Positions 3,485-3,742 of a stretch of 10,763 nt of DNA are shown one piece after another. How positions within the stretch are numbered: the first letter of the stretch is position 1; every line of letters starts with the position of its first letter. Location: the IMG/VR virus record IMGVR_UViG_2526164690_000049. The stretch is one strand, 5' to 3'. The notes under the pieces were generated by a model. The model searched no databases. It was not told where the DNA came from and saw only the letters and a program-made list of their open reading frames with translations. Both the position numbers and the translations under genes were made by a program. This stretch comes from a virus (lineage: Duplodnaviria > Heunggongvirae > Uroviricota > Caudoviricetes).

Positions 3485-3521
3485 AAAAAAAGTCCTGGGG
3501 TTAAGTAAGGAACTCCAGGAC
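3485..3521 (-). terminator. Intrinsic-terminator-like hairpin plus U7 tract directly abutting the capsid start codon
   Basis: Plus-strand 3492-3502 GTCCTGGGGTT pairs with 3511-3521 AACTCCAGGAC (11 bp, one G-U) around an 8-nt loop. On the minus strand the hairpin is followed by TTTTTTT (3491-3485) and then the capsid ATG (3484-3482). The only SD-like AGGA lies inside the 3' arm of the stem. Confidence 0.55.
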
Positions 3522-3698
3522 GCGGCAAAAACTCAACCGTTTTTCATAAGGAAATCAGCAATCGCACCGATCGTTTTCCCGCCTGGTAATGAATATTGGC
3601 GAGAACATTAACAGGCGGAAAAGTGGCCCCAGCGTCCTGGCACCACGGGCGAGAATAATCATGATTCAGTTCGGGTAAAATATGCCGATCCTGTCAGT

Positions 3699-3724
3699 GA
3701 ACAACGTGGAACAACCACGAACAA
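3699..3724. repeat. Three 10-bp-phased GAACAA repeats (TTGTTC on the minus strand), candidate activator or replication-protein binding sites
   Basis: GAACAA at 3699-3704, 3709-3714 and 3719-3724 with exact 10-bp spacing. The first copy, AGTGAACAAC, resembles the origin iteron GGTGAACAG. A TATTTT -10-like hexamer lies on the minus strand at 3682-3677, 16 nt downstream of the proximal repeat. Confidence 0.5.
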
Positions 3725-3742
3725 ATAATTTACAAAAAATGA

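Follow-up and report, generated by a model that had tools for sequence, protein, structure and literature searches.

A structured leader RNA upstream of the capsid gene of a capsid-forming chromosomal island looks like an undescribed on/off switch for capsid production

The sequence under study is a DNA stretch of 10,763 nucleotides from the IMG/VR virus record IMGVR_UViG_2526164690_000049 (Caudoviricetes), which as a whole is termed the window in the following, and the element in question is the interval 3485-3742, located directly upstream of the major capsid protein gene. All genes of the window reside on the minus strand and coordinates are read on that strand. Phage-inducible chromosomal islands of the capsid-forming kind (cf-PICIs) are here defined as islands of ~15 kb which possess their own capsid and packaging genes and are devoid of tail or lysis genes, with EcCIEDL933 having been described as the prototype. 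Pfam matches taken together with the annotation of the E. coli O157:H7 copy identified int, alpA, primase, an own HK97-type capsid, protease, portal, HNH and terminase, which places the window among the cf-PICIs of EcCIEDL933 type. A segment of 401 nt around the interval is 100% identical to E. coli O157:H7 chromosomes, where the copy is inserted in tqsA and continues with genes for a head-tail connector, HNH, TerS and TerL; no EcOnc small RNA is labelled SpLE2, an element with which the island may be identical. cf-PICIs were reported to make their own capsids and to release tail-less particles which borrow tails from phages of other species. The cf-PICI literature mentions no promoter, terminator or leader for the packaging operon, the switching of this operon is undescribed, and helper-free capsid production has been reported yet is unexplained. 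The interval is suggested to be the control region of the capsid and packaging operon, whereby its RNA part looks like an undescribed on/off switch for capsid production. The genes at the locus are as follows:

9546-10763, minus strand: integrase gene (int)
8984-9172, minus strand: AlpA-family regulator gene (PF05930, E = 5e-18)
5349-7181, minus strand: D5-type primase gene
between the primase gene and the 100-amino-acid open reading frame, minus strand: SSB gene and PerC-family protein gene (4126-4518 being the PerC slot)
3776-4078, minus strand: open reading frame of 100 amino acids (no Pfam family; 74 amino acids in the RefSeq annotation)
2327-3484, minus strand: HK97-fold major capsid protein gene (PF05065, E = 2.3e-61), first in the packaging operon

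Genes for the prohead protease, the portal protein and a head-completion protein follow downstream of the capsid gene, while a gap of ~290 nt separates it from the 100-amino-acid open reading frame. The capsid start codon is sound, as M1 and residues 6-11 are invariant in eight capsid homologues (64-74% identity). Folding of the minus-strand interval as a whole yielded -103.1 kcal/mol (z = -4.78, with 0/100 shuffles being as stable), which bears out the structured nature that a preliminary description of this DNA had ascribed to it. The same description took the interval for one leader of ~260 nt, and this has to be revised: the 258-nt interval is not all leader, since its upstream ~90 nt are DNA elements (a motif, phased repeats and a predicted promoter) and the predicted 5' untranslated region comprises ~160 nt. 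Within the latter the following elements were identified:

3623..3646, minus strand: hairpin 1, GUGGU-g-CCAG-GACG-CUGG-g-GCCAC, -11.3 kcal/mol, at the predicted transcript 5' end
3632..3640, minus strand: candidate antiterminator or anti-sequestor strand CCAGGACGC, 5' arm and loop of hairpin 1
3575..3622, minus strand: hairpin 2, UUUUCCGCCUG...CAGGCGGGAAAA, 11 + 5 bp, -19.7 kcal/mol
3553..3572, minus strand: hairpin 3, GAUCGGU...GCUGAUU, small, not among the parts conserved in the diverged leader L060
3515..3523, minus strand: 5' arm of the terminator or ribosome-binding-site hairpin, GCGUCCUGG, alternative partner of 3632-3640
3492..3521, minus strand: ribosome-binding-site-sequestering hairpin of terminator shape (the last hairpin), -12.7 kcal/mol
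3485..3491, minus strand: U7 tract between the last hairpin and the AUG (3484-3482)

The last hairpin has the shape of an intrinsic terminator, i.e., a GC-rich stem-loop with a U-run directly after the stem. GTCCTGG (3521-3515) pairs with CCAGGAC (3498-3492), giving 7 bp of which 5/7 are G-C, followed by an A.C mismatch (3514/3499), three further pairs (3513-3511 with 3500-3502) and an 8-nt loop, with pair probabilities of 0.90-1.00 in the equilibrium ensemble. AGGA (3496-3493), the sole Shine-Dalgarno-like element, is located in its 3' arm. Hence, the earlier view of a hairpin with U7 ending at the start codon and holding the only AGGA in its stem stands, while its stem length of 11 bp does not, as there are 7 + 3 pairs around a mismatch; the built-in terminator scan, owing to its mismatch and loop rules, did not list this hairpin. 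No promoter is present next to the ATG, as noted before, and the previously recognized 7-bp stem 3618-3612/3585-3579 exists as the core of the 11 + 5 bp hairpin 3622-3575, listed here as a structural spacer between hairpin 1 and the ribosome-binding-site hairpin. Pairing of an A-run (3548-3544) with the U7 tract is part of the minimum-energy fold and was dismissed, as it is not conserved in L060. Likewise, a leader peptide starting from a conserved CATG was rejected, since the ATG is missing in type B2 leaders (leader types are given below), frames and stops differ between types, a Shine-Dalgarno sequence is absent and the ATG overlaps the -10 hexamer. Scanning with Rfam 15 identified no family at the gathering threshold for the leader and, in a search of the whole window, none there at E <= 1; with the leader alone and E <= 10 only matches of 11-18 bits were obtained as compared to thresholds of 48-49 bits, a type-B leader was likewise unmatched, and the literature search found the leader sequence in no paper.

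The basis for a switch is a long-range alternative pairing. All 9 nt of CCAGGACGC (3640-3632) can form Watson-Crick pairs with GCGTCCTGG (3523-3515), and a complement of at least 9 nt to the 5'-arm region arises in only 0.2% of 20,000 dinucleotide-preserving shuffles of the upstream 221 nt (p = 0.002), with 6-mer complements arising in 22%. The resulting helix of 9 bp amounts to -17.1 kcal/mol and takes up the entire GC-rich part of the last hairpin's 5' arm, thus excluding the terminator; both the complementarity and the mutual exclusion of the two pairings had been recognized in the preliminary description and are upheld. The antiterminator strand is not free by default because the 5' arm and loop of hairpin 1 hold it. 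When the 5' arm of the last hairpin has been made and the 3' arm has not yet been made, the alternative helix (ON) is part of the minimum-energy fold, with -49.8 to -52.3 kcal/mol as compared to -47.5 to -49.6 kcal/mol with hairpin 1 forced, i.e., an advantage of 2.3-2.7 kcal/mol. Once the 3' arm has been made, hairpin 1 together with the terminator is ahead by 6.7-7.8 kcal/mol, and in the full leader the OFF fold possesses -62.6 kcal/mol as compared to -53.5 kcal/mol with ON forced. For the diverged type-A leader L060, folding at full length gave the ON helix as the minimum-energy structure. In these folding models both states are close enough for a kinetic switch, whereby the default output is not readable from the energies alone.

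Based on this, a three-element attenuator is suggested, with hairpin 1 serving as anti-antiterminator, the long-range helix as antiterminator and the last hairpin as terminator and ribosome-binding-site sequestor. In the OFF form hairpins 1, 2 and 3 and the last hairpin would be formed, so that the Shine-Dalgarno sequence is hidden and a terminator shape with U7 is presented. In the ON form CCAGGACGC of hairpin 1 would pair with GCGUCCUGG, the terminator would not form and the Shine-Dalgarno sequence would be free, whereby read-through into the capsid gene and its translation would be gated together. The role of the conserved 5'-terminal hairpin 1 as anti-antiterminator would be a point that escaped the preliminary description. 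As to the working of the system, our best guess is a kinetically balanced switch with low basal output; a factor encoded by the island or the host and working downstream of AlpA, rather than a helper-phage protein, would push it to ON. The sequence features, the folding energies, the conservation and a limited covariation are observed, and within this model we infer the transcription start, the actual termination, the direction of the switch and its trigger.

Conservation was assessed with 215 capsid-upstream regions from species-representative genomes, IMG/VR and metagenomes, which were found with the capsid protein and an 8-sequence capsid alignment, and with further 79 loci covering much or all of an island. 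The leaders fall into the following types:

Type A: 34 distinct sequences, including the window, E. coli/Shigella and the diverged L060
Type B: 80 distinct sequences
Type C: 18 distinct sequences
Type D/E: 4 distinct sequences
Type F and short AT-rich types: smaller sets

The term B-like covers types B, C, D and E (alignment A2, 81 distinct leaders). Across the 215 related loci hairpins 1 and 2 are retained. Within type A, 24 distinct leaders carry both complementary 9-mers without any change; among them is L060, which has a capsid of 69% identity and a leader that has drifted elsewhere. In the same leaders the 3' arm of the last hairpin carries several substitutions while its 5' arm is invariant, as would be anticipated for a 5' arm serving two partners. 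B-like leaders possess hairpin 1 in the form GUGGC-a-CUCA-GACG-UGAG-cc-GCCAC, which is 99.6% paired with two compensatory pairs, and a comparison of type A with type B revealed three compensatory inner-stem pairs with an identical loop. The sequence of hairpin 2 is unrelated between the B-like types, and still compensatory changes are found in 7/7 of its lower-stem pairs, with 95.9% of the cells being paired, a covariation score reached by 0/500 shuffles and G.U pairs on this strand only. These patterns are good evidence for a sense-strand RNA structure under selection.

The complementarity between hairpin 1 and the ribosome-binding-site hairpin is likewise kept. The core CGUC is present in every leader type that bears hairpin 1, and the loop GACG and CGUC form four standard pairs in 81/81 B-like leaders and also in type A. 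In B-like leaders the 3' half of hairpin 1 (AGACGUGAG-cc-GCCA) is complementary to UGGUUUCACGUCU, which comprises the 5' arm of the ribosome-binding-site hairpin and the adjacent box, and the resulting helix of 13 bp shows 98.4% of its cells paired as compared to 28-52% with slid register. It contains two invariant G.U pairs and varies by one compensatory U-A to G-C change (four sequences) and three wobble-preserving one-sided changes, and type A pairs via the opposite half of hairpin 1. Leaders of type F are unrelated in sequence and carry a 5'-proximal CAUGYRGG which can pair with CCUGCAUG or CCUACAUG at the ribosome-binding-site hairpin, the pairing being part of the minimum-energy folds. 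As judged from these alignments, a 5'-proximal segment with complementarity to the ribosome-binding-site hairpin region recurs in three leader families without sequence relationship; the long-range pairing excludes the ribosome-binding-site hairpin in types A and B-like, which is less clear for type F. The strands of the alternative pairing are kept in homologues, being invariant in type A and nearly completely paired in the B-like leaders. The long-range helix, although always present, offers as covariation only the changes given above together with the difference between types A and B.

The same data bear on two explanations in which RNA pairing plays no role. The complementarity could have arisen by chance in a non-functional spacer, considering that the preliminary description was derived from a single sequence and that complements as short as 6 nt are common in shuffles; given the rarity of the 9-mer, its conservation over 215 loci and several leader types and the z-score of the fold, this is scarcely credible. 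Alternatively, hairpin 1 and the downstream box may represent two inverted operator copies for a DNA-binding regulator acting at or after the promoter, with RNA pairing being irrelevant. Hairpin 1 is indeed unusually conserved for a stem and constitutes an imperfect palindrome from ~+1, and the type-B box is a 10-of-12 inverted copy of it. Yet the one-sided changes (L209, L231, L260) keep G.U wobble and not DNA identity, the 13-bp helix holds its two invariant G.U pairs, types A and B make use of opposite halves of hairpin 1, and hairpin 2 retains its structure while its sequence changes, its G.U pairs being confined to the sense strand, which renders an operator explanation very unlikely. In the islands L312 and L400 the last 40 nt ahead of the capsid ATG hold a short leader, rich in AT, with a 7-bp hairpin (GUGUCUU/AAGACAC) ending at the AUG and GAGGAAAA in its loop, which may be a split or structure-presented Shine-Dalgarno sequence.

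The leader is preceded by a block of DNA elements, for which the following were identified:

3748..3765, minus strand: intrinsic terminator AGCCGGAGCAATCCGGCT followed by TTTTGTC, closing the upstream gene unit and shielding the region of the capsid promoter
3721..3737, minus strand: motif TTTTGTAAATTATTTGT, upstream boundary of the conserved regulatory block
3699..3724, minus strand: three copies of the box TTGTTC, spaced by exactly 10 bp (first positions 3724, 3714 and 3704)
3674..3679, minus strand: predicted -35 hexamer TTTACC (TTT[A/T]C at a fixed position)
3652..3657, minus strand: predicted -10 hexamer TATTCT (TATnTT consensus)

In the mechanism proposed, the invariant motif and the three phased boxes would precede a sigma-70-type promoter with its start at ~3646. 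The TTTTGTAAATTATTTGT motif occurs once in the window as compared to 0.04 copies expected by chance, and its core TTGTAAAT is found in leader types A, B, C, D/E and some others, with capsids being only 64-75% identical and upstream genes differing. Types A to E and several others open with the motif TTTTGTAAATTAT(T/C)GT, whatever the upstream gene or its orientation. From this conservation the motif is a candidate protein-binding site; by eye none of the sigma-54, CRP, IHF and Ogr/Delta-type sites fits to it, and a scan of viral contigs for TTTTGTAAATTATT was discarded, as the pattern is too AT-rich and gave chance matches in unrelated viruses. The TTGTTC boxes are candidate activator sites, possibly for AlpA, and in other leader types boxes of ~10 bp period likewise follow the motif. 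Around 60 E. coli genomes (matches H26-H30) match only 50-56 nt holding the invariant motif and the TTGTTC boxes. Both of those inspected, H26 and H29, are cf-PICIs that carry a type-C leader and another primase (DUF927). The promoter-upstream module is thus exchanged independently of the leader RNA.

The promoter was called from 77 distinct sequences aligned on hairpin 1, in which TATnTT shows 100% A at position 2 and 100% T at position 6, with the GTGG of hairpin 1 beginning 5 nt thereafter, while the spacer of 16 nt between -35 and -10 is not conserved in sequence across leader types. A conserved sigma-70-type promoter is thus predicted whose transcript would start at ~3646-3644 (6-8 nt after the -10 hexamer), i.e., at hairpin 1. 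An upstream candidate, TTGTTC-N16-TATTTT, was set aside, as it is kept in L060 but lacks a counterpart in other leader types. A dependence of head gene expression on read-through from upstream genes is made less probable by this predicted promoter and by the terminator 3765-3748 at which the upstream genes end and which is kept in type-A relatives whatever gene lies upstream; because this strong terminator cuts off the upstream genes, a dedicated promoter is favoured over plain read-through and the capsid operon probably has its own. As a side observation, islands of type B1 (L003 2810-2845, L004, L005), L365 and similar ones possess a terminator-like hairpin with T-run between the phased boxes and the predicted -10 hexamer, and in L003/L004/L005/L365-like islands the T-run overlaps a weak -35 (TTTTCT). 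The terminators 4119-4102 and 3765-3748 are nearly identical (AGCCGGAG[A/C]AATCCGGCT with a T-run) and flank the 100-amino-acid open reading frame 3776-4078, an arrangement reminiscent of a moron-type insertion or of a cassette boundary that was duplicated. The C-terminus encoded by this reading frame (…EQIDALIEFLKGIRD) is found again in Rosenbergiella, Gilliamella and many metagenomic islands, where it immediately precedes the leader. The position next to the leader on its upstream side is taken, in E. coli cf-PICIs that otherwise resemble each other, either by a gene for a ProQ/FinO-family RNA chaperone (L072 6197-6739) or by a PerC-family gene (L073 6395-6673; window 4126-4518), and a ProQ/FinO protein encoded next to a structured leader may be of relevance. 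An obligatory partnership of the leader with the 100-amino-acid protein or PerC was dismissed, since their homologues were found in only 143/311 and 72/311 loci, respectively (with limited flanks); in some islands of type A the PerC gene borders directly on the leader, with no homologue of the 100-amino-acid open reading frame between them.

Previous work on cf-PICIs reported that alpA is required for their induction, and the AlpA of phage-inducible chromosomal islands activates its own promoter. Tail-less cf-PICI capsids were reported to form without an inducing helper phage, which makes the helper-phage trigger once considered for this locus unlikely. Four TTGTT(C/G) boxes with a 10-bp period are located at 9440-9500 on the plus strand between int and alpA, i.e., in an orientation opposite to the cluster at the capsid promoter (3699-3737, minus strand), and these are the only two phased TTGTT(C/G) clusters in the island region of 18.4 kb; in the distant islands L405 and L416 TGTTT boxes occupy the two corresponding sites. 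Both control regions may be served by a single DNA-binding protein, plausibly AlpA, with the boxes maybe constituting a shared AlpA box. As regards a sensor choosing between the folds, no conserved leader open reading frame and no Rfam sensor domain were found. Separately, the window region 5080-5350 holds TGTTCAC(C)/TATTCAC iterons in both orientations, resembling a replication-origin array, and a copy of TGTTCAC at 3703 also closes the box array upstream of the capsid promoter. The sole Rfam matches of the window (MIR395 and MIR1508 at 5166-5273) were identified as inverted iterons of the replication origin and not as RNAs.

The presence of an AlpA-family gene gives rise to a further explanation, namely protein-mediated processive antitermination, in which a genuine terminator silences the operon and AlpA or another island factor loads on RNA polymerase at the promoter, as P. 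aeruginosa AlpA and lambda Q do, with hairpin 1 serving, e.g., mRNA stability or translation. In the target operons of P. aeruginosa AlpA, intrinsic terminators directly precede the first gene and are bypassed by this protein, whose binding element GGGACG-N5-GGTA sits between -35 and -10 (PMC7969949). The layout of such a unit is found in the window, i.e., a predicted promoter, a terminator-shaped hairpin ahead of the first gene and the AlpA-family gene at 8984-9172 of an element whose induction needs alpA, and the phased TTGTTC boxes precede the autoactivated alpA and the capsid promoter alike. Yet the promoter spacer, being the site of the P. aeruginosa element, is not conserved here and the conserved DNA elements are located upstream of -35, most cf-PICI leaders lack a terminator yet keep hairpin 1 and the complementarity, and among solved structures the window AlpA gave one AlpA-family match only (8c3t, E = 2.6e-6), with no entry of an RNA-polymerase/AlpA complex being matched by sequence. 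Taken together, this explanation is considered unlikely; it and the RNA switch are not mutually exclusive.

Belief and doubt are about evenly balanced for the attenuator-type switch model of the capsid leader, which is the reading preferred here. Several findings weigh against it. At equilibrium the probability of the ON pairs is ~0 in the window's own full leader. The long-range helix shows few independent covariation events and most of its columns are invariant and hence uninformative, so that it is likely real, not proven, and in the type-F leader L311 the minimum-energy long-range pairing covers the Shine-Dalgarno sequence rather than freeing it. A stricter sigma-70 consensus scan found no promoter. 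Moreover, the type-F leaders L384, L402, L311 and L217 carry a middle hairpin followed by U6-U7, i.e., a terminator-shaped element upstream of the ribosome-binding-site hairpin; as this element lies upstream of the 5' arm, alternative RNA pairing could not control it, and the recurrence of such hairpins with U-runs in unrelated cf-PICI leaders hints at protein-mediated antitermination. Finally, 34/34 distinct type-A leaders carry six or more consecutive T (T7 or T8) no further than 11 nt from the start codon, as compared to 0/120 distinct leaders of other types, so that termination is not the conserved function, and the U-run could simply be a spacer or a translational enhancer.

All types bearing hairpin 1 possess Shine-Dalgarno-like purines in the 3' arm of the last hairpin, and the conserved function suggested by these leaders is most likely release of, or access to, the ribosome-binding site. 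From the preliminary description of a terminator and antiterminator, the shape and the alternative helix thus persist, while termination as the conserved function gives way to ribosome-binding-site access, given that the T-run is confined to type A. Termination looks like a lineage-specific addition, whose use is suggested by the strict conservation of the terminator shape within type A. This leads to an explanation by translational control alone, in which the U-run is no working terminator, the contact of hairpin 1 is an activating long-range helix or pseudoknot as in IncI-alpha/IncB repZ/repA leaders and the operon is silenced via polarity. It is in line with Shine-Dalgarno masking and hairpin 1 complementarity being found in all hairpin-1-bearing types and the U-run in one only, and with the loop GACG of the B-like hairpin 1 facing CGUC in the loop of the last hairpin in a loop-loop-like manner. 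What it leaves unexplained is that U7/U8 after a GC-rich stem was kept in every type-A leader, L060 included, while the neighbouring sequence drifted, and the other components of the IncI-alpha system are missing, as no conserved leader peptide and no antisense promoter were found; control at the level of translation only is thus regarded as rather improbable. The attenuator-type switch, in which both levels would be gated by the same pairing, offers a concrete mutable target: a 9-base change at 3632-3640 or 3515-3523 should lock the capsids off or on. Furthermore, a new structured RNA, present in hundreds of enterobacterial islands, is delineated by the comparative set, from which a candidate DNA box common to the alpA and capsid control regions also emerged. 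A more far-reaching idea, put forward as speculation and with considerable doubt, is that of a riboregulator family specific to capsid-forming satellites which would set the fraction of cells making tail-less capsids without a helper. In the O157:H7 lineage, it might also free an abundant RNA of ~160 nt (constitutive promoter, hairpin with U7 and the 3' architecture of an Hfq-binding small RNA), acting in trans like StxS.

The suggested control region can be compared with several known systems. SaPI operon I is LexA-repressed and P4 Psid is activated by Delta/Ogr, both acting on transcription initiation, and as in these satellites the morphogenesis genes of the cf-PICI are controlled apart from the replication genes; to our knowledge a structured leader of this type is undescribed for SaPI operon I and P4 Psid, and none is described for cf-PICIs in the cf-PICI literature. 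Classical three-element attenuators, consisting of anti-antiterminator, antiterminator and terminator, are known from trp, pyr and T-box leaders, with which the cf-PICI leader shares mutually exclusive 5'-leader helices and a decision that falls between the synthesis of the two terminator arms. Unlike in these, no leader peptide and no tRNA-binding or known ligand-binding or protein-binding module was found in the leader, the antiterminator strand is located 110 nt upstream with a conserved hairpin in between, and the terminator, which directly adjoins the AUG, contains the Shine-Dalgarno sequence as well. The IncI-alpha/IncB repZ/repA leaders make use of an activator pseudoknot in which a loop GGCG contacts CGCC beside the ribosome-binding site. 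The cf-PICI leaders resemble them in possessing a G/C-rich 4-nt loop (GACG; GGCG in L231 and L260) with complementarity to a sequence inside the ribosome-binding-site hairpin, but differ in that no conserved leader open reading frame or antisense RNA gene was detected (a crude scan found no promoter-like site on the opposite strand of 3300-4200) and in that the pairing comprises 9-13 bp and needs hairpin 1 to be melted.

Within the lambdoid PR'-tR' units, short terminated transcripts such as the lambda 6S RNA and StxS of Stx phages occur together with Q antitermination. The layout of a promoter, a leader of ~160-260 nt and an intrinsic terminator just before the late (head) genes is shared, and a short terminated RNA is expected here as well; in contrast, the cf-PICI possesses no Q gene and no conserved spacer element, shows a conserved alternative pairing and a hidden ribosome-binding site, and its terminator is missing in most relatives. 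The AlpA/tB system of P. aeruginosa (PMC7969949) is similar in that an AlpA-family regulator is encoded in the same element and an intrinsic terminator is located immediately upstream of the first gene of the target operon, but GGGACG-N5-GGTA is absent here, the conserved DNA lies upstream of -35, and antitermination by the AlpA of phage-inducible chromosomal islands is a hypothesis. Since a defining feature of each of these systems is missing, with no sensor identified, no spacer element and no leader peptide or antisense RNA, the leader was kept out of the named families and is filed as a new, attenuator-type member of the general class of cis-regulatory leader RNAs.

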